This document shows, piece by piece, positions 1-15,809 of a stretch of DNA of 24,327 bases. A program made the translations under genes and the position numbers. The notes under the pieces are model-generated. The model was not told the DNA's origin. It was given only the letters and a program-made list of their open reading frames with translations, and ran no database searches. Within the stretch, counting starts at the first letter, position 1. Each line of letters begins with the position of its first letter. Source of the stretch: a virus (Duplodnaviria; Caudoviricetes). The stretch spans positions 1-24,327 of the IMG/VR virus record IMGVR_UViG_3300033141_001877, one strand, 5' to 3'.

Positions 1-169
1 TTACAACGTTTGCAGACTTCAACATAACGCCCGATGTCAGGTCCGGCTTTTTCTCCTGGACTATAACCGGCTTTTTCGGTTTTGTTTTTATGCTGCTCTT
101 ATTCCTTGTTACTTCAAGGCCTTTCTTTTCAACCTTCTTCTTAAGAGCCGCTTGCGACATTCGTTTCAT
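1..169 (-). CDS. Hypothetical Lys-rich protein, 5' part only (runs off the window edge)
   Basis: Read by hand. The ATG at 169 overlaps the TAA of the upstream gene (TAATG). The frame MKRMSQAALKKKVEKKGLEVTRNKSSIKTKPKKPVIVQEKKPDLTSGVMLKSANVV stays open to position 1. Confidence 0.65.
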   Translation of the reverse strand, partial: MKRMSQAALKKKVEKKGLEVTRNKSSIKTKPKKPVIVQEKKPDLTSGVMLKSANVV

Positions 170-3100
170 TAAATACAATCCCTTAAGATTTTGAGTGAAA
201 GTATCCTCTCGTCGATATCTTCAAGAGCTTGCCCGGCATCCTCTTTCACTTTAACAACTTCGCCGGTTTCGGAGATCTGAACTTCTGATTCATACTTTAA
301 GCCCTTGCCATGCTCGGGCGTGATTTCTATTTGTTCCCGTTTTAGGAGCGCCTTGGCTTCCTGTGGGGCCTTTTCTGCGACCTTTTCCGTTTTAGGTGTC
401 TCGGGTAGGGCCTTTCTTTGTAAATCAGGATAATCTTTAAGGACTGATTCTGGAACGGGTTTGCCCTGGTTAATAGCCGTATGCACAGCGTTTTTGTGAA
501 AGGTATTCTCAGTATAGGACGTTGCCCCCTTCCGTGGCTTTCCGTGTAGCGATTCATATTCAGAAAGTGTCATTTCCCACGTTTCTTTGCCCTTCTCAGA
601 GGCCGGAGGTTGGACGATCTTTTCTGCCTTAGTTTTCTCCAATTTATCTGTTGGAGATCTCCAACTTTCTGTTGGATATCCAACAGGTTTTTTCTGTTTT
701 CCCCAGGAAAGCCAGTTCTTAAACTTCTCAACTGACATTTCAGTAATATCACCAAAGCCCTGCCAGCCTTCTTCATAATTGGCAAGATAACCCTCTTTGG
801 CAGCTTCTTCACTTGAAAAGCCGGTCATTACCTTGTGCTCGTCAAACTTGCCTGTTCCTGGTTCAACCTGATCAACAATATAAACATTAGGACTTTCAGT
901 ATCGGGACCGACAAAGGTATCAATCTGATCACCGTCTTTGCCTTCGGTACGGTTGAAATATCCGTAATGATGTTTCATTTCGATTGACCATTTTTTCCCG
1001 TCAGGAGCAACGCCTTTGCGCTGAGATCCTTTCGGGTTTTCAATGGCAATCTCCATGCCCTGAATATGGATTGCCCCTTTTAAATAATTTCCTGCTTGCT
1101 TTTGTTTTTCAGATGGGTTAATATCAACCTTAATTTCTTGATCACCAATTTTAGAGGAAGCTATATGTCTACCATCAGGAAGTATGTCTGTTTTAATTGT
1201 GGAATCACTTTTAGTAGAAATTGGAGTTCCAGGAAAGGTCAAGTCCGCTTTTTCTGTTGCGTCTCTTGCAGAAATTCTTTTGATTGTGGAAGAAAGAGAA
1301 TCAACGAAACTGATTACAGGCTTAGGTATAGATACGTCACTCGGAATGGAAAGCCTATGGGTGAGCATCGTTTTGTTATGGAGCAAACCATCGGGCGTCC
1401 ACTGGCTTCCGACGAGGCCGTTCATCACATCAACGGGGATAGTCTTGATAATCGCCCTGAGAACTTGCGGATCGTTGAACGAGGATCTCACAGAAGAAAG
1501 TATCATCTGCTGTCTGTCCCGCTTGAGCGAATTAAAACTCTCAGACTGCAGGGTTTTAGTATTAGAGCGATTGCCAAAAAGATTGGAGTTAGCAAGAACA
1601 CTATCACCAACAGACTCGTCGACCTTGGATTTCCTCTCTGTAGGCCGTAATTCAATAGTCGTACCCGCACCCGCAAGAGCTACATCAGTCTTTTTGGGTG
1701 CGGGCACTTTCGCTACGCGGCGATCTGCTTCAGAGATTACAGGCGGTTGCCCTTCGTCTCTTTTCTTTTGTTGTTCCTGGATATCAGTTTTAACGGTAGC
1801 CCAATATTTCTCATTTGCTTGCCGTTCTGCTTCCTCTGCAACTTCGACCTGTTGTAATGTCGTTGGTCTTGCTCCATACTTTTTCCGGCCCTTGGCAATC
1901 TCGCCTTCTTTTCGCTGCTGTTCAATATTAGCTTCAACGCCCTTCCAGTATTTATCTTCCTCGCGCTTTTCTGTAATGAATTCACCGGCTTGTGTTATTT
2001 GTTCCTCGATACCGCCCAGCTTTTCAACCCGCTGATCTTCCTCTTGCTCCGCTTCAAACTCTTTGATTTTCTCTTGATTACGCCTTCTTGTCTGAAAGTC
2101 TGTAGTCGTTGGTTCTTCAACCGTCGGCTTTTCGGCCTTCGTGGGTTTTGTGGTTGAAAGGACCTCGTTTATTGCGTCGTAAAGAATATCATCTTTCGGT
2201 AGGTCTTTAAGCTCGCCTTCTAATTGTTCGCGAGTAATTTGCCCACCGTCAAGAGCCTCTTTTAATTGCTCTGTTTTCCTGGTCAGGTCGGTTTCTTTCT
2301 CGTCTTTATTGGCTTTAAGTTCTCTTTTATAATCGGCAATAACAAAGGGAGATCCTGCAACCTGGACGCCACCGGTAAGCATAGCACCACCAACGGCTCC
2401 CACCTTCATAGCCTTCTTTGCTTTTTTATGAATCGCCGGAAATTCGTTTAAAACTATCTTGGCTATTTCTGCGCCGGTCTTCTCATGGTTAGCTGCATAG
2501 AGATTGGCTATTTCATCAGGATATTGCTGTAAATATTCCTCTAAGCCTTCACCTGTGATATTGGCACCCAAAACACCTATGAACTGTCTGAGGCGTTTTC
2601 CAAAACCCATTTTGGCCCCGGTCTTGGAAAAGATCGTCTTCAACATTTTGATTTGAAAGATAGATCCGGCCTGTTCCAAAGGTGTATTTATTGCAGAGGT
2701 AAGCAGGCCAATTTCCCTTGCAAGCTCTTTATCAATACCAGCATCAACCAGCTCTTTGCGTTTCTGCCCGTATATCTGATTAAACATCGATATCGTGCCA
2801 GCGGGGATATTAAGGGCAGTTAAGGCCATACCAGGACCGAATCTTGACACACCGCCTGCAGCGGTTTCAATTATTCCTGAGCTACCAGGTAGAGGTTCCG
2901 GCAATGTTTCTACCCATTTTTCATAAGTCTCTATGCTCTCGTCCCTGATTTTTACAGAATAATCTCTTTTTAGGTCCTCGCGTTCCCTGGAAGTTAATGG
3001 AGATCCCTTGTCTTTTTCTGCTTGCCGCAGCTCTTTACCAAAAAGAGCTTTTTCGGTATCTGATAAAACGTTAAATGCAATTTCCGGCTTTCTTAATTCA

Positions 3101-3492
3101 TACGCCTGGCTCGGTCCTTCTTTTTTCTTGTATGGCTCAGGTTCGCTTTTTGCATAGCTTTTCATGTGTTCCGCTTCACCTATCGCACCCTGGGCCATAT
3201 CTCCTAACCCCTGGGCCGCATTGCGAAACATCTGTGTGCCAACTCTTTTAAATGTGAGTTCTGGGACTAATCCTGTAGCTGGGTCAACTTCGGCATAATC
3301 GGACTCTCCTTGTTCTTCGCCTTCGAACAAAGATTCGCCAAATTCCATGAAGGCACCGGCCATTTGTTTGCCAAGGCCCACAGCCTTTTGAGGCTCTTTC
3401 GGCTCAGGTTCTTCCCCTTCCCAGGTTATCTTTGTTGGATCTATTTCAGGGGGTTCGTTGTACCACGTTATTTTCTTTGGATTAATTGACAT
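169..3492 (-). CDS. Large polyvalent (probably virion-packaged/ejected) protein with an inorganic pyrophosphatase (InPase) domain
   Basis: 1107-aa ORF. The C-terminal third has the polyvalent-protein InPase signature NPSEKQKQAGNYLKG..IENPKGSQRKG...W...M.HHYGY...TEGKDGDQID.FVGP...YIVDQV...FDEHKVM.GF. The N-terminal half is Gly/Ala-rich and helical (GEGLEEYLQQ, GAVGGAMLTGG), as in podovirus DNA-transfer proteins. It lies downstream of the tail genes. Confidence 0.8.
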   Translation of the reverse strand: MSINPKKITWYNEPPEIDPTKITWEGEEPEPKEPQKAVGLGKQMAGAFMEFGESLFEGEEQGESDYAEVDPATGLVPELTFKRVGTQMFRNAAQGLGDMAQGAIGEAEHMKSYAKSEPEPYKKKEGPSQAYELRKPEIAFNVLSDTEKALFGKELRQAEKDKGSPLTSREREDLKRDYSVKIRDESIETYEKWVETLPEPLPGSSGIIETAAGGVSRFGPGMALTALNIPAGTISMFNQIYGQKRKELVDAGIDKELAREIGLLTSAINTPLEQAGSIFQIKMLKTIFSKTGAKMGFGKRLRQFIGVLGANITGEGLEEYLQQYPDEIANLYAANHEKTGAEIAKIVLNEFPAIHKKAKKAMKVGAVGGAMLTGGVQVAGSPFVIADYKRELKANKDEKETDLTRKTEQLKEALDGGQITREQLEGELKDLPKDDILYDAINEVLSTTKPTKAEKPTVEEPTTTDFQTRRRNQEKIKEFEAEQEEDQRVEKLGGIEEQITQAGEFITEKREEDKYWKGVEANIEQQRKEGEIAKGRKKYGARPTTLQQVEVAEEAERQANEKYWATVKTDIQEQQKKRDEGQPPVISEADRRVAKVPAPKKTDVALAGAGTTIELRPTERKSKVDESVGDSVLANSNLFGNRSNTKTLQSESFNSLKRDRQQMILSSVRSSFNDPQVLRAIIKTIPVDVMNGLVGSQWTPDGLLHNKTMLTHRLSIPSDVSIPKPVISFVDSLSSTIKRISARDATEKADLTFPGTPISTKSDSTIKTDILPDGRHIASSKIGDQEIKVDINPSEKQKQAGNYLKGAIHIQGMEIAIENPKGSQRKGVAPDGKKWSIEMKHHYGYFNRTEGKDGDQIDTFVGPDTESPNVYIVDQVEPGTGKFDEHKVMTGFSSEEAAKEGYLANYEEGWQGFGDITEMSVEKFKNWLSWGKQKKPVGYPTESWRSPTDKLEKTKAEKIVQPPASEKGKETWEMTLSEYESLHGKPRKGATSYTENTFHKNAVHTAINQGKPVPESVLKDYPDLQRKALPETPKTEKVAEKAPQEAKALLKREQIEITPEHGKGLKYESEVQISETGEVVKVKEDAGQALEDIDERILSLKILRDCI
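1096..1124 (+). promoter_or_regulatory. Candidate sigma70-type promoter for the antisense HNH gene
   Basis: TTGCTT (1096-1101), 17-bp spacer, TAATAT (1119-1124), ending 40 nt before the ATG at 1165. The consensus match is only partial. Confidence 0.3.
1165..1650 (+). CDS. HNH homing endonuclease (Cys4 zinc finger + HNH_3-type nuclease + C-terminal HTH), nested antisense inside the polyvalent protein gene
   Basis: Motifs CFNC..F...FCCVSC; EHRFVMEQTIGRPLASDEAVHHINGDSLDNRPENL; GFSIRAIAKKIGVSKNTI. An AGAGGA Shine-Dalgarno at 1153-1158 precedes ATG 1165, which I prefer over the TTG at 1096. 161 aa. Confidence 0.85.
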   Translation: MSTIRKYVCFNCGITFSRNWSSRKGQVRFFCCVSCRNSFDCGRKRINETDYRLRYRYVTRNGKPMGEHRFVMEQTIGRPLASDEAVHHINGDSLDNRPENLRIVERGSHRRKYHLLSVPLERIKTLRLQGFSIRAIAKKIGVSKNTITNRLVDLGFPLCRP

Positions 3493-3497
3493 AATTT

Positions 3498-4634
3498 TTA
3501 ATGTTTTGACTCATGATTTTGTTCTTTTGCATACCCATAAGTACCATCATCGTACTGGACTACCTCTTTGCCGTTTTCATCTACACCCCGTTTAACAATC
3601 GTCTTTTGTTGTGGTTTTAAGCTTGTCGATATAAACTTATCAATTTGATATACGTCTTTAAGTCTTTTGGTTTCTTCTGCATTTTTGATCGGATCATATT
3701 TCTTTGTTGGATCCATCCCATCAATTGCTTTTATAAAAGCTGTTACCATATTAGCAGCTTTCTTATCGCCCATAAGCTTTTCCATAGCCTGTTCTTCATT
3801 AAGACCAGGAACAATGCTTGCCATGTATTGAGCGTTCTTCTGTAGTGTCGATCTGGTATCTTTGGCCGATATTGAAGCTTTGATCCGCGCGTTTTTCGTT
3901 ACCAAGGCCGCTGCTCTCATTTCGGTTTGTAGCTTTTCAATCCTTGCATTATCTTTTGCAATCCCGGCTTTCCCCCACTTTGTAGCCGCGTATGGATTGA
4001 GTGAGGATATTCTTGTTTGCGCCTGCTGAATAAGTTTTTGAGGATTGTTTGAGTCAGCTTCAATCTGAGCAATGTTTTTATTATATTGAGCTTGATTGAT
4101 CTGGTTGTCAGCTAAGGCTTCGTCAAGCTTCTCTATCTTTGCCCTTTTCGCTCTTTTGCCGCTTGTGTTAGCAATCGCCCAGGCCTGCACTTCGGGACCA
4201 GCTTCACCATGAATAACAGGCCTATTCGTTCCTTTGTGAAAGTATTTATACTTGCCTGGTTCATCTTTATTAACATCATAATTCAAATCAGTAGCAAGCT
4301 TGTCGATATTAATAGTGCCGTCTTTATTCTTATAGAACATAAATTCAGCGCCTTCGGCTGACCGAACAAGATCTGAAGACGATAATTGCCGATTATAAGC
4401 CTGTGAAGCTGCAACATCTTCTTTGCTTTTCAGCTCGCGCCCTGGTTTTTCCTGTTCGTACATTTCGGATGCTCTATCATCGATCACAGATTGACGGCCT
4501 ATGTCATACTCTTGCTGTCTTCCCCTCAATCCAAGGCTCTTTAATGCTATATCCGACCGGCTTTTATCCCTACCTAAACCACGAACTGTACGAGATAAAA
4601 CATCTAAAGCGTGTACGACTTGTTGATTACCCAT
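3498..4634 (-). CDS. Putative internal virion/ejection protein
   Basis: 378-aa Ala/Gln/Lys-rich helical ORF located between the GNAT-like gene and the large polyvalent gene. The call rests on position and composition. Confidence 0.5.
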   Translation of the reverse strand: MGNQQVVHALDVLSRTVRGLGRDKSRSDIALKSLGLRGRQQEYDIGRQSVIDDRASEMYEQEKPGRELKSKEDVAASQAYNRQLSSSDLVRSAEGAEFMFYKNKDGTINIDKLATDLNYDVNKDEPGKYKYFHKGTNRPVIHGEAGPEVQAWAIANTSGKRAKRAKIEKLDEALADNQINQAQYNKNIAQIEADSNNPQKLIQQAQTRISSLNPYAATKWGKAGIAKDNARIEKLQTEMRAAALVTKNARIKASISAKDTRSTLQKNAQYMASIVPGLNEEQAMEKLMGDKKAANMVTAFIKAIDGMDPTKKYDPIKNAEETKRLKDVYQIDKFISTSLKPQQKTIVKRGVDENGKEVVQYDDGTYGYAKEQNHESKH

Positions 4635-4643
4635 GATCCACCC

Positions 4644-5048
4644 CTACAATTTTTGTGTTATTATTAGATATTGTTTACCATCGCTGGCTGTTCTAAAGCC
4701 TGTGATTAAATAACCTGAAAGAAGCGCTGTAAACAAGGCTTTTTTATTCTTGTTTTCGATATGGCCCATAAGGTGCTTTGCTCCCATCTTCTTAAACGTT
4801 TGGTGAAATTCCTTATTGATTTGTGCCGCCCGCTTTTTGGTCCTGTATTCTGGAAGCATCCCGGTTGCATTGATATAGATTGTGGTGCTGTTGAAAGAAA
4901 ATCCCGCCGTAAAACCATATGTTTTAAACTCGTCTTCGGCTGTAAGCATCACCGGAGGCATTAAAATAGGCGCTTGTTTGTCAAAGCACCCAAAGTATAG
5001 CTTAGGATAAATCTCTTTAATCTCGTTATGATTAAGCCGCTTTATCAT
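4644..5048 (-). CDS. GNAT-family acetyltransferase-like protein
   Basis: 134 aa with the GNAT pattern YGFTAG...IYINATGMLPEYRTKKRA...GAKHLMGHIENKNKKAL...GY. GNAT-like genes are common among podovirus internal-protein genes. Confidence 0.65.
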   Translation of the reverse strand: MIKRLNHNEIKEIYPKLYFGCFDKQAPILMPPVMLTAEDEFKTYGFTAGFSFNSTTIYINATGMLPEYRTKKRAAQINKEFHQTFKKMGAKHLMGHIENKNKKALFTALLSGYLITGFRTASDGKQYLIITQKL

Positions 5049-6223
5049 TTCGCGTCACTTTCTCCGCCACCAGACCCGTCAATATCGGCACTGATACCGC
5101 TAAAATCGTCGTCAAGGTTTTGTGTCCCGGGTGCTGTTGTATCTGGACCGTCTTCTCGCCCTCCAACGTTCCAGCTACCATCATCCTTATATCCGCCGTA
5201 TCTGCTATCAAAGTCCACAACACCTTCCGCGTCCGTTCCTAAAGCTGACATTTCAGAGGGATCAACATCTGCCGCTGCTTGTCGGTCAGCTTGTCGATCA
5301 GACTTTCGATCTCCGAAAACGTCAACCCCGGCTTCAATAGCGGCCATTTCGTTTTCTATTCCTATTCCTGCCGCTTCATATCCTGGTGTCCCAGGGCCAT
5401 GCTTATTGTCCGGTCCCCATGGGTCACTAATATTAAAATCAGCGTCCCCTTCTCTTTCGGCTTGATTTCTGACTCGCTTTGACAGTCCAAACTTATCCGC
5501 CCAGGTAGGATCGTGAGAAATTGCCTCCAAAACCCCTGGGTCTAAATGTTCAGAGGGTGGAGCCGTGTATGCGGCCATAACATCAGGATCTTTTGAATAT
5601 TCATCATAATCTTGTGCTTGCGTTATTTGATCTTGAACATAGGTATCACCAAAACCAAAACCCTGTTCTGAAAAAACATTTTCAAGCTGCTTTCCTCTGT
5701 GTTGCGCATCTGTTGCGGCGTCTACTGCTTTATAAAGACCATATCCAGCGCCATATGTCGGGTTCATCATTGCCGGGACTACTCCGCCAAGTCCTGCATT
5801 AAGATATGCTCCACCCGCAGCGGCCAATAAACCTTTCCCGGCAATTTTTTTACCGAAGCTTTCAAGCTCAGGGTTCATATAGTCCCTGCTCATTCGTGCC
5901 TGGATAGGGTTTGAGTCAGGCATATCTGGCGAGGTAGGGCCTCTGCCTTCGCCTTGCGGATTTGTATCAATTACAGCCCTATCAGGCCTGGTCGGAGCTT
6001 CTACTGTCTCGGCTTCCGGTATAGCCTCATCCGGTATAGCCTCAGCTTCCGGTCTGGACCTTCGCAACCCCAGGCCAACGCCTAATTGTCTTGGATCGAT
6101 ATCACCAGATAGAAGTCTTCGGCTCCGTCTTCCAGTTATCCCGCCCTTCTGCCTGTTTAATCCTTGCCTTTGCGCAAGAGCAATTATACGCTTTAACATT
6201 TCTTCTTTTGATATTGTCTTCAT
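5045..6223 (-). CDS. Putative internal virion/ejection protein with an acidic, low-complexity C-terminus
   Basis: 392 aa: basic N-terminus, a Gly/Ala hydrophobic stretch (GLLAAAGGAYLNAGLGGVVPAM) and an Asp/Gly-rich tail. ATGA overlap with the GNAT-like gene. Confidence 0.5.
   Translation of the reverse strand: MKTISKEEMLKRIIALAQRQGLNRQKGGITGRRSRRLLSGDIDPRQLGVGLGLRRSRPEAEAIPDEAIPEAETVEAPTRPDRAVIDTNPQGEGRGPTSPDMPDSNPIQARMSRDYMNPELESFGKKIAGKGLLAAAGGAYLNAGLGGVVPAMMNPTYGAGYGLYKAVDAATDAQHRGKQLENVFSEQGFGFGDTYVQDQITQAQDYDEYSKDPDVMAAYTAPPSEHLDPGVLEAISHDPTWADKFGLSKRVRNQAEREGDADFNISDPWGPDNKHGPGTPGYEAAGIGIENEMAAIEAGVDVFGDRKSDRQADRQAAADVDPSEMSALGTDAEGVVDFDSRYGGYKDDGSWNVGGREDGPDTTAPGTQNLDDDFSGISADIDGSGGGESDAK
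6015..6044. repeat. Perfect 15-bp in-frame tandem duplication
   Basis: tccggtatagcctca at 6015-6029 and 6030-6044, encoding EAIPD/EAIPE on the minus strand. Confidence 0.9.
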
Positions 6224-6232
6224 AATTTTTTC

Positions 6233-6565
6233 CTAAAAAAAGTCCATTATTGCATCATAGATATCGCCCATAGCCCCGGTTTCACTTAAAATATTAAGCC
6301 CGAGGTTGGCATATCCGAGATTGTTTGCCCTGTTCTGGTGCTTTCTTGCATCGTGAGCTGTCTCGTCGTCTATAGCAAGTTGCTTCTCACCTAAAGCAAA
6401 GTCCCTATCAGCTTGCGCTTCGCTGGCTATAAAAGCTTTTTCGGCAAACTCTTTATCTTTCTTTGCTTGCACCCTGGCAGGAAGATAAGGCGTTTGGGCG
6501 TTTATAATATCTTCAGCGCTTGACCTTCTTCTCAACCCCGTAACTGCTCCTATTTGATCGTACAT
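6233..6565 (-). CDS. Hypothetical protein, putative small ejection protein
   Basis: 110-aa ORF with AGGAG upstream, in the internal-protein region. Confidence 0.55.
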   Translation of the reverse strand: MYDQIGAVTGLRRRSSAEDIINAQTPYLPARVQAKKDKEFAEKAFIASEAQADRDFALGEKQLAIDDETAHDARKHQNRANNLGYANLGLNILSETGAMGDIYDAIMDFF

Positions 6566-6576
6566 GGCTTGATCTC

Positions 6577-7092
6577 CTATTGTTCCATATCGAGGTAATC
6601 AGGAATATCGCCCCTATAATTTTTAAACCGATGAATTCCCAACGTCCCCAGCCTGTCCATGTCTCTAATACCACGGTTAAGACCGGCATTATCATAGCGG
6701 TCATTCATTGTTTCCAGTTCTTCCAGGATCTTATCGTCCCTTCCCTTCTGTTTGTGTGCCCCATATGACGACAAACCAAGATTGCCTAAGCCAATAGCAA
6801 AGGCCTTTTTTCCCTGGCCTTTACCATAAGACAAGTCTCTATCAGCCATAGCGACGCGTTTGTCGGACAGGATATTACGCCTTTTTCTTTCTTTTTGCAG
6901 AGACTTAAACCCTCTTTCTCTGTTGGTATTCTGTGTGTTTAGGATCATGCTTTGAATACCTTTCCTCATGTTTTCGGCTGCGAATTCCGGATCTGCCGAC
7001 ACGGTGCTTAAAATCGCCCTGTGCTCAGGCCTTAAAGTCATAATCTTTTGTCGTGCTCTCTGGTATCTTGGATTGTTGGCCCAGGATCTCAT
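6577..7092 (-). CDS. Hypothetical basic protein, putative internal virion protein
   Basis: 171-aa ORF with GGGAG upstream. Arg/Lys-rich, with a short Gly-rich hydrophobic patch (AFAIGLGNLGLSSYGA). Confidence 0.55.
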   Translation of the reverse strand: MRSWANNPRYQRARQKIMTLRPEHRAILSTVSADPEFAAENMRKGIQSMILNTQNTNRERGFKSLQKERKRRNILSDKRVAMADRDLSYGKGQGKKAFAIGLGNLGLSSYGAHKQKGRDDKILEELETMNDRYDNAGLNRGIRDMDRLGTLGIHRFKNYRGDIPDYLDMEQ

Positions 7093-7095
7093 TGT

Positions 7096-7410
7096 TTAGC
7101 TCCCTTTTTGAAGTTGGATATTTCTTATTTGTTCAAGCGCTTTTTCAACAGCCTTTAAGGTGTCTTTAAGATCTCGATATCTTTTCCTTATTATTTCAGG
7201 CATTTTCGTTTCGTCTGTGCCGTATTGCTTTTCTATATCATATATTTGAGTTGCCGTATCGTTCCGAATATCCCTGTTGATTTTATAATCAAGCCTTAAG
7301 TTGGTGGCATGAAGTTCGGAGGCTTTCGCAAGATATTTTTCAGCGCCAACAACAGCGGTTACGATACTGATAAGAATAACGACTGAGCCTAAAACAGTTT
7401 TAATATTCAT
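7096..7410 (-). CDS. Single-TM protein with coiled-coil C-terminus (possible lysis/holin-type accessory)
   Basis: Start reassigned to ATG 7410 (MNIKTVLGSVVILISIVTAVVGAEKY, AAGGGA upstream), which removes the overlap with the previous gene. Heptad-like tail. Confidence 0.55.
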   Translation of the reverse strand: MNIKTVLGSVVILISIVTAVVGAEKYLAKASELHATNLRLDYKINRDIRNDTATQIYDIEKQYGTDETKMPEIIRKRYRDLKDTLKAVEKALEQIRNIQLQKGS

Positions 7411-7423
7411 CTTGTTTCCCTTC

Positions 7424-7744
7424 TTAGGTATGATTTTCCAACATGCCCTCAATCCTACCTAAAGCCCGGCTCATCTTCTCTTTCCATATCGAATCTTCCC
7501 TCCGGGCTAACTCTCGTTTACCGTCCATTTCTTTCATATCTTTTCTAAAACCGTCGAATTTATCGCATATAGATTTATCAAGTTTAACGTGCGAATCTTT
7601 ACACTCACCTTTAGTAACGTACACTGAAATACCATCCTTTTTATATAAAGCTGTTCTTAAACTGCCCTGGTTTTTGCGAACTTGCCACCACACAAAAGCC
7701 ATCATTCCTGCCAAGACTAATCCTATTATGTCAGTTCCACTCAT
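7424..7744 (-). CDS. Single-TM protein with coiled-coil C-terminus (holin/XhlA-like architecture)
   Basis: IIGLVLAGMMAFVWW transmembrane segment followed by YVTKGEC and a charged coiled coil ending LGRIEGML. Confidence 0.5.
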   Translation of the reverse strand: MSGTDIIGLVLAGMMAFVWWQVRKNQGSLRTALYKKDGISVYVTKGECKDSHVKLDKSICDKFDGFRKDMKEMDGKRELARREDSIWKEKMSRALGRIEGMLENHT

Positions 7745-7914
7745 TTCGAATTCCCCAATTTTTCTTTTGTGACAACCCCGCTGCCATTACAAAATTCACA
7801 TGGTTCTTTTATTGCTGTTATTCTATCCGCATAGTAGCAAATTTTACCATTTAAGATTTTCTCTACGATATGTTCCCCTTCGCAGACAGGGCAAGTTTCC
7901 AGTTCTGTTTCCAC
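7741..7914 (-). CDS. Small DnaJ-type zinc-finger protein (57 aa, absent from the ORF track)
   Basis: Read by hand. GTG start at 7914: METELETCPVCEGEHIVEKILNGKICYYADRITAIKEPCEFCNGSGVVTKEKLGNSK. It has two CxxCxG motifs, fills the intergenic gap, and its TGA overlaps the next ATG (ATGA). Confidence 0.75.
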   Translation of the reverse strand: METELETCPVCEGEHIVEKILNGKICYYADRITAIKEPCEFCNGSGVVTKEKLGNSK

Positions 7915-13203: not shown

Positions 13204-13440
13204 TTAATCTCCTTTATGAAAGTAATTTTTAATATGGTAAAGCGCCCTTCTAAGCTTCCATCGTATTCCCGGAAATAAAATCGTTTTAACAATCTTGCCA
13301 TTTTTCAGCTTTGCAAAAGATCCCGGCCATACCGCCTTTTCATCTTTAAAGTCTTTATATCTGAAGGCTATCTTTCTACCATTGCTTATTTGATAGAACC
13401 CCTTGCCTGTTTGTGGATCGTATCTGTCAATTTTTATCAT
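13204..13440 (-). CDS. Small basic protein with a cold-shock/OB-fold-like N-terminus
   Basis: 78 aa, coupled to the upstream gene (TAATG). KIDRYDPQTGKGFYQISNGRKIAFRYKDF parallels the cold-shock pattern VKWFNxxKGFGFIxxxxGxDVFVHFS. Confidence 0.45.
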   Translation of the reverse strand: MIKIDRYDPQTGKGFYQISNGRKIAFRYKDFKDEKAVWPGSFAKLKNGKIVKTILFPGIRWKLRRALYHIKNYFHKGD

Positions 13441-15809
13441 TAGTCCAACCTCGTTGATAAGCCTAATCTATTTAAGCCCTTTCCAGCCCCAGCATCCGAA
13501 AAGACATCATAAACAATATTGGCGTCCGAAAGAGCTTTGGTTGATTCTATATCAAAGACGAGTTCCAGGTCGCTTAGAGTCTTTATATTAATGTCAAAAA
13601 CATGCTCCGAGTCAGAATTCATTTTATTAAGAACATCGAATAGCGCTTCCAGATCCGAATTAACTTTGTTGTATATATCGTAAACAGCTTCAAGATCCGA
13701 ATCCATCTTTTCGAATTGATCATAAACAAGTTCCAGGTCACTTAGAATCCTATGATAAACGTCATATTTAAGAACAGAGTCGGCATTTATCTTATTTAGA
13801 ACGTCGAAAACAAACTCAATGGACGAATCGATTCTGCCGATCATGTCATAAACAAGCTCTGAGTCCGACGTTACCTTGCCCACTACATCAAAAACGGCCT
13901 CAATATCGCTTGATATCTTTTCGAATTGATCATATTTAAGGGTAATATCAGCATAAATTGAATTTAAAACGTCAAAAACTCCCTCAATATCAGAGGAAAT
14001 AATATTTTTAACGTCATATACGAGCTCTGAGTCGGACGAGACTTGCCCGGCCTGGTCATAAACCGCCTCCATATCGCTTGATACACTCTCGCGCTGATCA
14101 TAAACGATAATCGAGTCTGCCCTGACTGTGTTGATAATATCAAATACCATCTCAACATCAGATCTTGCCACGCTAAATATATCAAAGACCGCTTCAATGT
14201 CAGATATAACCCAGCCCCAAGTATCATAGACAAGCTCTAAATCAGAGGATACCTTGTTAAATATATCAAAGACCGCTTCAGCATCGGAAGATATCTTGTT
14301 GCGCACATCATAAACCGTCTCAATGTCGGAATTTATCTTGTTAAATATGTCAAACACTGACTCTGAGTCAGAGGTTGTCCTCCCGGACTGATCATAAACA
14401 AGCTCAACGTCTGATGTTATTTTATTATAAACGTCAAAGACCAACTCGACATCGGAAGCAAGCTTATTGTAAACATCAAAAAGCGATTCTGAATCCGACG
14501 TTATCCTGGAATAACCGTCATATACAAGTTCGAGGTCGGAAGTAACTTTCGTCGTGCCAGAGGCAGGCGTAAAAACAATAGTAAGATCTGCATCACCTTC
14601 AAGCCACCAAATCCTTTGATTATATGCGCTGTTAACATCTTCCCAAACAAATGCCAACTTGTCGCCACTTTCAAAAGGATCTGCACCATCATCGCCATCA
14701 ATTCTTTGCTGAATAAACAAATTTAACTCTGGACTGTCTTGGCTTCCAGTGCTTCCTTCATCCCAATCTACCGTCACAGAAGTATGTTTCGTTAACTGAG
14801 AAGGTCTGTTGCTTGAGCCCCACGTTCCGGGAGATCTGTTATCAATCAACTTAAGAATAGCGTCGCAACCAGAGCCATCAACTCCGGTTACATCGATATT
14901 TATCTTTGTTCCGGTGTTTATTGTTGCTCCCGGCAAATCAGTGTCGGTAACTGTCCACATAAGACCGGAGTCAAGCACAGAGTCTTCGAAATCACCACAA
15001 ACAATATAGCCGACGTTATCATCGTACCAGGTAGTATCATCTTGTTCGAAACCGTCGTCAGCATCCGTTACAGTAGTTGGTCCCCAAGTATCAGGGCTTA
15101 CAACTATATCGTCATTATCCGAAAGACTAAAAGCACCTATAAAAATATCAAGCTTCTTGCCGCCTGCCTGATCCTCAACGGTGTAGTTCGAATGTATATC
15201 TATTTCGTCAGAGTCCCATTGAAACTTAATATTATCAAAAAGCAGCTTATAAATCCCAAGATTGTCGCCGCTTAAAGTTGTGGTCGGAACTTCAACCATA
15301 TCACCGGCAATACCTGAATTTTGAAACCTGATCCGATAGAGATTCGCGTTAACCACATGAAGGCGGAAAGTATTTTTGACTTTCTCGAACGGTCTGAAAA
15401 GAAACTCAACGTCAAGAGTGTTGCCGTCGCCATCAGAAAGATTACGGGTAATTACGCAATGCTCGTCTTGCTGGTCTACCGTCAACCCTATCTGCCACAA
15501 ATCAAGTGTGCGCCATTGTGGAGCATCCCAATACTGGACCTCAAACCTTTGATCATCTATAAGAGTCTCAATAGAACCAAACTCCCGAATGATCTGATAG
15601 CCTGCTGAATAAAACTCACAAGACAGCTCTCCGTAACGGATAGACTGACTTGGTTCATCCCATACATAGGGAGCGAAAACACCATCACCAAGATCAACGT
15701 TTTTCCGGCCCATAAAGGTTTTAAGCACCCTCTGGCCTGTGTCCTGGCCGTCCTGAGTAACCTTAAACTTACGGCAATCTGGCGTATATGTTAGGTGTTC
15801 CAGTGGCAT
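13440..15809 (-). CDS. Putative fibre/adhesin protein: two N-terminal beta domains plus a 25 x 14-aa repeat stalk
   Basis: 789 aa, very acidic. The middle domain resembles DNRLRE/CBM96-like sandwiches (DADDGFE...G...SGLMW...LPGATI...SPEL...IQQ...DLTIVF). The C-terminal ~350 aa are tandem repeats. Confidence 0.6.
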   Translation of the reverse strand: MPLEHLTYTPDCRKFKVTQDGQDTGQRVLKTFMGRKNVDLGDGVFAPYVWDEPSQSIRYGELSCEFYSAGYQIIREFGSIETLIDDQRFEVQYWDAPQWRTLDLWQIGLTVDQQDEHCVITRNLSDGDGNTLDVEFLFRPFEKVKNTFRLHVVNANLYRIRFQNSGIAGDMVEVPTTTLSGDNLGIYKLLFDNIKFQWDSDEIDIHSNYTVEDQAGGKKLDIFIGAFSLSDNDDIVVSPDTWGPTTVTDADDGFEQDDTTWYDDNVGYIVCGDFEDSVLDSGLMWTVTDTDLPGATINTGTKINIDVTGVDGSGCDAILKLIDNRSPGTWGSSNRPSQLTKHTSVTVDWDEGSTGSQDSPELNLFIQQRIDGDDGADPFESGDKLAFVWEDVNSAYNQRIWWLEGDADLTIVFTPASGTTKVTSDLELVYDGYSRITSDSESLFDVYNKLASDVELVFDVYNKITSDVELVYDQSGRTTSDSESVFDIFNKINSDIETVYDVRNKISSDAEAVFDIFNKVSSDLELVYDTWGWVISDIEAVFDIFSVARSDVEMVFDIINTVRADSIIVYDQRESVSSDMEAVYDQAGQVSSDSELVYDVKNIISSDIEGVFDVLNSIYADITLKYDQFEKISSDIEAVFDVVGKVTSDSELVYDMIGRIDSSIEFVFDVLNKINADSVLKYDVYHRILSDLELVYDQFEKMDSDLEAVYDIYNKVNSDLEALFDVLNKMNSDSEHVFDINIKTLSDLELVFDIESTKALSDANIVYDVFSDAGAGKGLNRLGLSTRLD
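13494..14546 (-). repeat. Coding tandem repeat, 25 units of 42 bp / 14 aa
   Basis: Consensus (I/V)xSD(L/I/S)E(L/A)V(Y/F)D(V/I/Q)xxK. Counted from VTSDLELVYDGYSR to ALSDANIVYDVFSD: 351 codons = 25 x 14 + 1. Confidence 0.9.

Follow-up and report, generated by a model that had tools for sequence, protein, structure and literature searches.

The locus studied here raises the question of how a complete HNH endonuclease gene can lie on the opposite strand of a large virion gene, inside its reading frame, while that frame stays open. The window, the whole stretch of 24,327 nucleotides that was analyzed, belongs to a 62,246-base phage contig whose portal, capsid and adaptor genes lie on the minus strand. 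A sequence-only reading of this DNA had described a 161-aa HNH gene placed antisense and in register within a 1107-aa ORF, and both the ORF coordinates and the codon positions agree with it: the gene lies fully within the host ORF, and its codons sit exactly opposite those of host residues 615-776. The locus is composed as follows.

169..3492, minus strand: host gene for a polyvalent protein of 1107 aa, with one Cys, open across the insert
709..1110, minus strand: InPase domain (PF18823; Pfam, E 7.6e-57), host residues 795-928
1165..1650, minus strand: host residues 615-776, the insert read in the host frame, with no stop, Cys or Tyr
1165..1650, plus strand: HNH endonuclease gene of 161 aa, from ORF and Pfam evidence, with zinc finger, HNH_3 and HTH
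HNH residues C9, C12, C31 and C35: N-terminal C4 zinc finger
HNH residues 68-109: HNH_3 core (Pfam, E 9.9e-10)
HNH residues 121-149: C-terminal helix-turn-helix, HTH_38 (Pfam)
1153..1160, plus strand: Shine-Dalgarno-like AGAGGAAG before the HNH ATG (-6.0 kcal/mol against the anti-SD motif)
1096..1124, plus strand: candidate sigma-70-like promoter, TTGCTT-17-TAATAT, in the codons that start the InPase domain

The HNH protein resembles I-HmuI in its HNH_3 core, its intact catalytic residues and its DNA-binding modules. In the AlphaFold model (pLDDT 86.8), residues 43-116 align with I-HmuI (1u3e) over 68 residues with a Z of 6.3 and an rmsd of 3.1; 1u3e was also the best Foldseek match, though at an E of 0.097. 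This is the single HNH of its type in the genome of the window phage. Outside the window, the same phage carries a second giant ORF of 3,651 codons (G000:C123:2483-13435, minus strand) with no such HNH opposite. The exact HNH sequence is absent from a collection of 15 billion proteins, while the host protein is on record, which indicates that gene callers miss the HNH. The identical 1107-aa host protein was recorded from 6 contigs, and an assembly slip is therefore unlikely.

The host gene follows the portal, capsid, adaptor and tail genes. Its polyvalent domains, its position in the virion module and its cysteine suppression are features of polyvalent or ejection-type proteins, and the product is probably packaged in the virion and ejected. 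Cysteine suppression has been described as a trait of ejection proteins and ascribed to their passage through the periplasm, in the part of the source available to us (PMC11445570). Upstream of the host gene, two ORFs of 378 and 392 aa (window 3498-6223, minus strand) are Cys-free, consistent with an ejection-protein operon. Elsewhere in the window (13440-15809, minus strand), the C-terminal half of a 789-aa protein is an array of repeats of about 14 residues (S-D-x-E-x-V-[YF]-D).

Because the two frames are in register, TTA, CTA and TCA codons in the HNH would place stops in the host frame. The window HNH has 12 Leu and 12 Ser and uses none of the three; the odds of about 1 in 1000 first given for this came out at 8.6e-4 when recomputed with uniform codon use and at 4.4e-4 with the codon use of the window. 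Likewise, none of its 12 Ala and Thr codons is GCA or ACA (chance 0.01), which leaves the host segment Cys-free. The claim that this segment is rich in Ser and poor in Glu was also correct, with Ser at 14.8% and Glu at 2.5% against 4.3% and 12.9% in the flanks.

We then asked how the HNH might be expressed. Its own Shine-Dalgarno sequence, proposed from the start, is present ahead of the ATG. The proposed promoter fared less evenly: it has 7 of the 12 consensus bases, which is below the threshold of a consensus scan, so that the scan did not report it, but the comparison of carriers with non-carriers speaks for it. At the homologous position, a position chosen from the window itself, five carriers match 7, 7, 6, 6 and 5 of the 12 bases, while 30 non-carriers average 2.6 with a maximum of 5. 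Four of the 5 carriers, but no other row, have a TAnnnT box there. Across the nested genes of the family described below, a Shine-Dalgarno of -6 kcal/mol or stronger precedes 10 of 21 ATG starts, compared with 6% of 2,087 background ATGs, a difference inflated by start codons having been picked partly by their Shine-Dalgarno match (for 4 of the 25 genes no ATG was picked). Among the members with a weak Shine-Dalgarno, 6 of 12 have a -10 box 5-9 nt before the ATG, against 84 of 1,668 in the background, which suggests leaderless HNH messages in these members. Thus, the HNH is likely expressed from antisense signals of its own.

Next, we looked for the same layout in other phages. A search with the HNH alone retrieved a second case (L093), in a different host of 1589 aa and also immediately before InPase. 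Four more loci came from profile scans, L120, L122, L123 and L133; in L133, a single frame of at least 2,848 codons holds two HNH genes of this kind. In a wider scan with an HNH profile, a sharp score break set apart 31 genes (29 distinct) above 110 bits; duplicates of the window and of L002, the loci L158 and L160 (protein identical to that of L156) and a truncated copy in L150 are excluded from the counts. The sequence-only reading had suggested such a scan for antisense HNH genes within long ORFs, and it was productive: 25 of the 29 distinct genes are nested antisense and in register, and their host frames range from 645 to over 3,500 codons. Eighteen of the 21 members outside the profile, retrieved by HNH similarity alone, are also nested. 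Below 100 bits, no in-register antisense frame exceeds 469 codons, except that of the truncated L150 copy. These family data remove the doubt that a single window might be a lucky survivor. The hosts carry InPase, ART-PolyVal, LPD1/3/5/38, RadC, ddrB-ParB, MuF_C and SNF2/methylase domains, and the nested layout thus recurs in unrelated host genes.

A minority of members (L002, L147, L156 and L157) are free-standing or split their host. In L002 (3739-6200), a close relative lies between a stand-alone InPase ORF and a RadC/JAB ORF, and one stop divides InPase from an open antisense frame of 234 codons. The free-standing members in L157 (1564-2922) and L156 (1-693) are found just beyond the 3' end of the host gene; a short copy of the host C-terminal motif flanks the HNH on both sides in L157 and follows it in L156, an arrangement that would resemble 3'-end replacement. 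The truncated L150 copy (7492-7749, plus strand) is a second HNH copy of 86 codons after a stop, in the same open host frame, possibly a nuclease decaying while the host frame stays intact. Another carrier phage (L153) has an array of 11 tRNA genes at 21-1092.

The layout can also be sought from the protein side. At E ≤ 0.001, a HMMER profile built from eight antisense translations has 2,035 matches among representative proteins (clustered at 50% identity), of which 353 reach E ≤ 1e-10. Among the best 150 of these 353, 123 proteins are at least 1000 aa long, 5 carry two segments and only 2 are loci already in the set; the antisense image of the HNH motif is present in 139 of their 155 matched segments. 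An intact HNH gene would be expected opposite these 150 protein matches. Word-index protein searches with the antisense segment gave no match where the full HMMER search gave hundreds, which reflects a limit of sensitivity. A tblastn search of annotated phages with the antisense segment also gave no match. HNH queries against annotated phages and plasmids returned no polyvalent-annotated gene among the matches listed, and no cultured carrier was therefore identified. Besides the window, the antisense profile found only two weak short-frame matches in 401 genomes of the phylum, and a later viral scan with a 30-sequence profile returned mostly contigs already in the set.

The HNH frame is under purifying selection. 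The four zinc Cys and the H-H, N, N and H residues are kept in all 30 aligned members, and the full HNH motif in 28 of 29. In 12 pairs, HNH dN is 0.25-0.45, with dS at least 1.27 or saturated. When dN and dS were compared in both frames, a check that had been proposed for this locus, HNH dN lay far below dS and host-frame dN close to it. By analogy with characterized relatives, we infer that the family proteins are active nucleases.

In the HNH tree, monophyly of the antisense group as a whole is weakly supported (57/77 in one tree, 14 in another). Subclades that track the insertion site are strongly supported, as follows.

Immediately before InPase: the window, L120, L122, L123 and L093, with the split L002 (support 99/98)
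Variable loop that follows the GTGEGAQ motif: L153, L155, L169 and L170, with L150 and the free L156 (support 100/99)
ART-PolyVal-like domain, between its end motifs: L148 and L151 (support 100/98)

Alleles without the insert, a search for which had been proposed, were found at related sites. Of 80 loci fetched for the GTGEG site, 79 are empty, and the loop measures 61-136 residues in the 64 measurable empty loci against 216 in the filled one. Among the protein matches, some inserts fall inside InPase, where the motif spacing is 9 in 75 of 76 ordinary copies and 168-170 in two filled ones; inside another conserved domain the spacing of 18-19 becomes 171-173 when filled. Sites were assigned for part of the 155 segments, 97 having no assigned site. 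For the window host gene itself, neither viral contigs nor another 300 genomes of the order yielded a close empty allele or a relative of the N-terminal 614 aa of the host.

In the five InPase-site carriers, the HNH ATG lies 13-16 codons from the same proline, and the N-terminal host flanks have no BLASTP match to one another. For 10 of 10 carrier pairs, identity is higher in the HNH than in InPase. The first InPase motif is likely the target region of the HNH. When carriers were tested for altered target motifs, the signal was not specific, with p 0.01 for the first motif and p 0.03 for the rest of the domain. By analogy with homing endonucleases, the HNH cassette would move by homing. In one protein match (P0133, residues ~781-810), the antisense segment is followed by what appears to be the first InPase motif only; an InPase domain was not detected there, which would fit a cassette that brought its promoter tract into another host.

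The same observations have to be weighed against module shuffling without homing, in which one insertion per host domain would have traveled passively with that domain (for example, HNH plus InPase) and been retained because the phage profits from it, for instance in attacks on competitor DNA. Although the InPase tree scatters the carriers, a single carrier clade is not rejected (AU p 0.22), and the first InPase codons are common to carriers. Polyvalent proteins are known to swap domains (in the available part of PMC5512222), and the purifying selection on the HNH fits such a benefit. However, the carrier InPases are only 41-53% identical to one another and each is nearer to some non-carrier, within a biased sampling; filled alleles are rare among empties; and the sites are many and independent, some of them inside conserved domains with precise empty counterparts. 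We consider module shuffling improbable, though it is the strongest of the alternatives.

We next examined the host frame for signs of selection. Within the 25 nested genes, TTA, CTA and TCA occupy 0 of 693 Leu and Ser positions where about 100 would be expected, a count that is partly circular since nesting is itself defined by the open frame. ACA (0 of 248 Thr) and GCA (0 of 295 Ala) are also missing, giving 0 host-frame Cys where 100-135 would be expected, and this zero does not depend on the definition of nesting. In 41 control HNH genes, ACA makes up 23% of Thr and GCA 26% of Ala codons. These triplets are common when read in the other two frames of the nested genes, and the four free-standing members have 10 Cys and 7 stops in the host frame. 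Stops and Cys are thus excluded from the host frame; Trp, Tyr and Phe are likewise depleted. The hosts as a whole hold 15 Cys in 51,994 aa, and the residues matched by the antisense profile include 6 Cys in 23,233 in proteins of at least 500 aa against 16 in 1,951 in short ones. Since RNA that is spliced out would not need Cys exclusion, translation through the insert is favored over splicing, and the host protein is likely translated straight through it. No residue-specific selection beyond composition was seen in a conservative-substitution test (p 0.23), which fits a tolerated passenger segment.

A different reading of the host frame is that its product has come to function as a folded domain, an overprinted helical bundle, and that the layout is maintained by selection on this domain rather than by tolerance. 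The AlphaFold model of the host-frame segment has a helical core at about host residues 635-734 (pLDDT 66-86) with low-confidence linkers on either side; in the model, InPase folds separately from this core, and the flanks are predicted to be disordered. Four-fold third positions are also more conserved in nested pairs (0.46) than in control HNH pairs (0.30). A fold search with the core gave no clear match (top Z 5.2), and the ESM Atlas had no usable match for the segment. Against this reading, the model was built from 6 sequences only, whose covariation is imposed by the HNH. Host substitutions at HNH-synonymous codons are no more conservative than in controls in the substitution test above, the near equality of dN and dS also speaks against such a domain, and 79 of 80 GTGEG-domain loci manage without the insert. 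A selected domain therefore seems quite unlikely to us.

Less likely still is that the insert is removed by unrecognized RNA or protein splicing or by a protease, the open frame being a by-product. Some polyvalent proteins are proteolytically processed (PMC5512222, available part), and inteins can hold antisense endonuclease genes (bioRxiv 10.1101/2025.01.02.630785, available part). In contrast, no Rfam intron was found in window 1-4000 (E ≤ 5) or in 12 family loci (gathering score), and no Hint/intein domain in any host scanned with Pfam. The junction residues are not intein-like, the segment is Cys-free, and selection on the host frame at the amino-acid level would not be expected under RNA splicing. 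Proteolytic trimming after translation may nevertheless be compatible with the data. A chance-open antisense frame, with the long ORF an artificial join of two genes, has next to no probability, and the family data refute it. GC-rich genes do often have an open in-register antisense frame, and 6 of 34 control HNH genes lack a forbidden codon, but at GC ≤ 0.56 this holds for only 1 of 23 controls, the 25 nested cases show none of the roughly 100 stops expected, the zero Cys does not hinge on how nesting is defined, and inserts within conserved domains rejoin in frame.

Consequently, the model that we favor, and hold to be fairly probable, is that of a mobile, homing-type HNH nickase cassette that is expressed antisense and spares its host by read-through of a passenger segment, with no splicing. 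The idea of an antisense insertion tolerated as a translated linker came with the first description of the locus, and the exclusion of stops and Cys, the empty related alleles and the lack of intron or intein signals support it. According to this model, the HNH mRNA would start from the antisense promoter written into the first InPase codons; in other members, the -10 box just before a leaderless ATG would take this role. The I-HmuI-like protein would then bind and nick the conserved motif beside the insertion point in the empty alleles of co-infecting phages, and recombination repair would copy the cassette, together with a short promoter-bearing flanking tract, into the empty allele. The insert would fall in linkers and variable loops, so that the host protein still folds, and synonymous HNH codons would be chosen that leave the host frame without stops and Cys, as in ejected proteins that cross the periplasm. 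The expression, cleavage and homing steps are modeled on the anatomy of the locus and on known HNH homing endonucleases, as far as the available part of that source describes them (PMC2988022).

More tentatively, and with the odds in our view against it, the cassettes might form a portable class of read-through elements, free of stops and Cys, that land in register almost anywhere in giant ejection genes, catalytic domains included, and move among many sites in a transposon-like manner, each time overprinting a segment of 150-250 residues; they would then not be homing genes fixed to particular sites. If so, overprinted segments, possibly folded helical domains, would exist in hundreds to thousands of phage lineages.

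The favored model would give a selfish nuclease a route to persist in large, probably important virion genes without splicing machinery. With 353 representatives, the family is common yet hidden from annotation, and "unknown" stretches in giant phage proteins are therefore mirror images of HNH genes. It also offers many natural, independent, fully antisense dual-coding regions in which to study the origin of overlapping genes and the constraint shared by two frames, as well as small nucleases whose target regions can be predicted.

How do these genes compare with known systems? The hosts belong to the class of phage polyvalent proteins with InPase, ART-PolyVal and LPD domains, for whose InPase versions packaging and injection have been proposed (Iyer et al. 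2017, PMC5512222). The available part of that paper describes no nested antisense genes and mentions HNH once, in another context. The T4-type free-standing HNH homing endonucleases, such as mobE in Aeh1 nrdA and mobA in T4 gene 60 (PMC2988022), are also intron-less, cut conserved neighboring sequence, can insert within genes and have an I-HmuI-like fold. To the extent that the source covers them, however, their insertions split the host into separate ORFs, whereas the host of the window family mostly stays one ORF. Inteins with anti-sense LAGLIDADG or VSR-like endonuclease genes (bioRxiv 10.1101/2025.01.02.630785) share with the window family an endonuclease on the opposite strand and an open host frame. 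In those inteins, going by the same partial source, the segment is excised from the host protein, while in the window family an intein domain is undetected and the nuclease is an HNH.

The closest parallel is the ShiLan domain, a stop-free, in-frame insertion in mycobacteriophage DNA methylases with an HNH encoded in another frame (Arsenault, Gosselin and Gogarten 2025, PMC11855218). As far as the available text of that work goes, both systems have neither intron nor intein, and the insert is proposed to remain in the host protein, as a loop in ShiLan. The two HNH proteins are homologous, with 35% identity over residues 6-113 of the window HNH, and the L169 HNH is 37% identical to that of ShiLan over 4-143. 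The same available text indicates that the ShiLan HNH lies on the same strand as its host, at a frame offset of 2, and lacks an RBS of its own, whereas the window family is antisense, in register and has its own Shine-Dalgarno or leaderless signals. The ShiLan HNH ends in a zinc finger and the window HNH in an HTH; the ShiLan host is a dispensable methylase, and the hosts here are giant virion polyvalent genes with many sites. In the tree, the ShiLan HNH falls in a separate part, alongside other same-strand methylase inserts. Work by Gosselin in 2023 (PMC9957025) reportedly also concerned the hidden HNH insertion in mycobacteriophage DNA methylases.

Further ShiLan-type cases turned up in our scans: L163, L164, L180, L201, L126, L101, L134 and gp59 of phage Cr-LKS3 (L375), a cultured cyanophage, carry same-strand hidden HNH genes in long ORFs, and those scanned are N6/N4 methylases. 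A further N6/N4 DNA methylase ORF of 768 codons (L190:5333-7636, minus strand) has two antisense HNH frames (5902-6381 and 6592-7191, plus strand), in a different register (offset 1) and outside the polyvalent group in the tree.

The available text of the ShiLan paper (PMC11855218) contains no antisense case, and no antisense, intein-free HNH in polyvalent genes was found in the literature covered, a scope outside which most subscription journals lay. The proposal that the window locus represents a different lifestyle stands in part: neither intron nor intein was detected and the insert is likely a translated linker, but the same-strand version has been published as ShiLan and antisense endonuclease genes are known in inteins. 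The antisense version, in a new and large host class, is new, whereas the hidden-insert lifestyle itself was already published on the same strand. Translation of the insert had been left a prediction in the ShiLan work, and the exclusion of Cys and stops provides sequence evidence for it. What sets the present family apart is its host class, its scale, the number of its sites and the direct evidence for selection on both strands.
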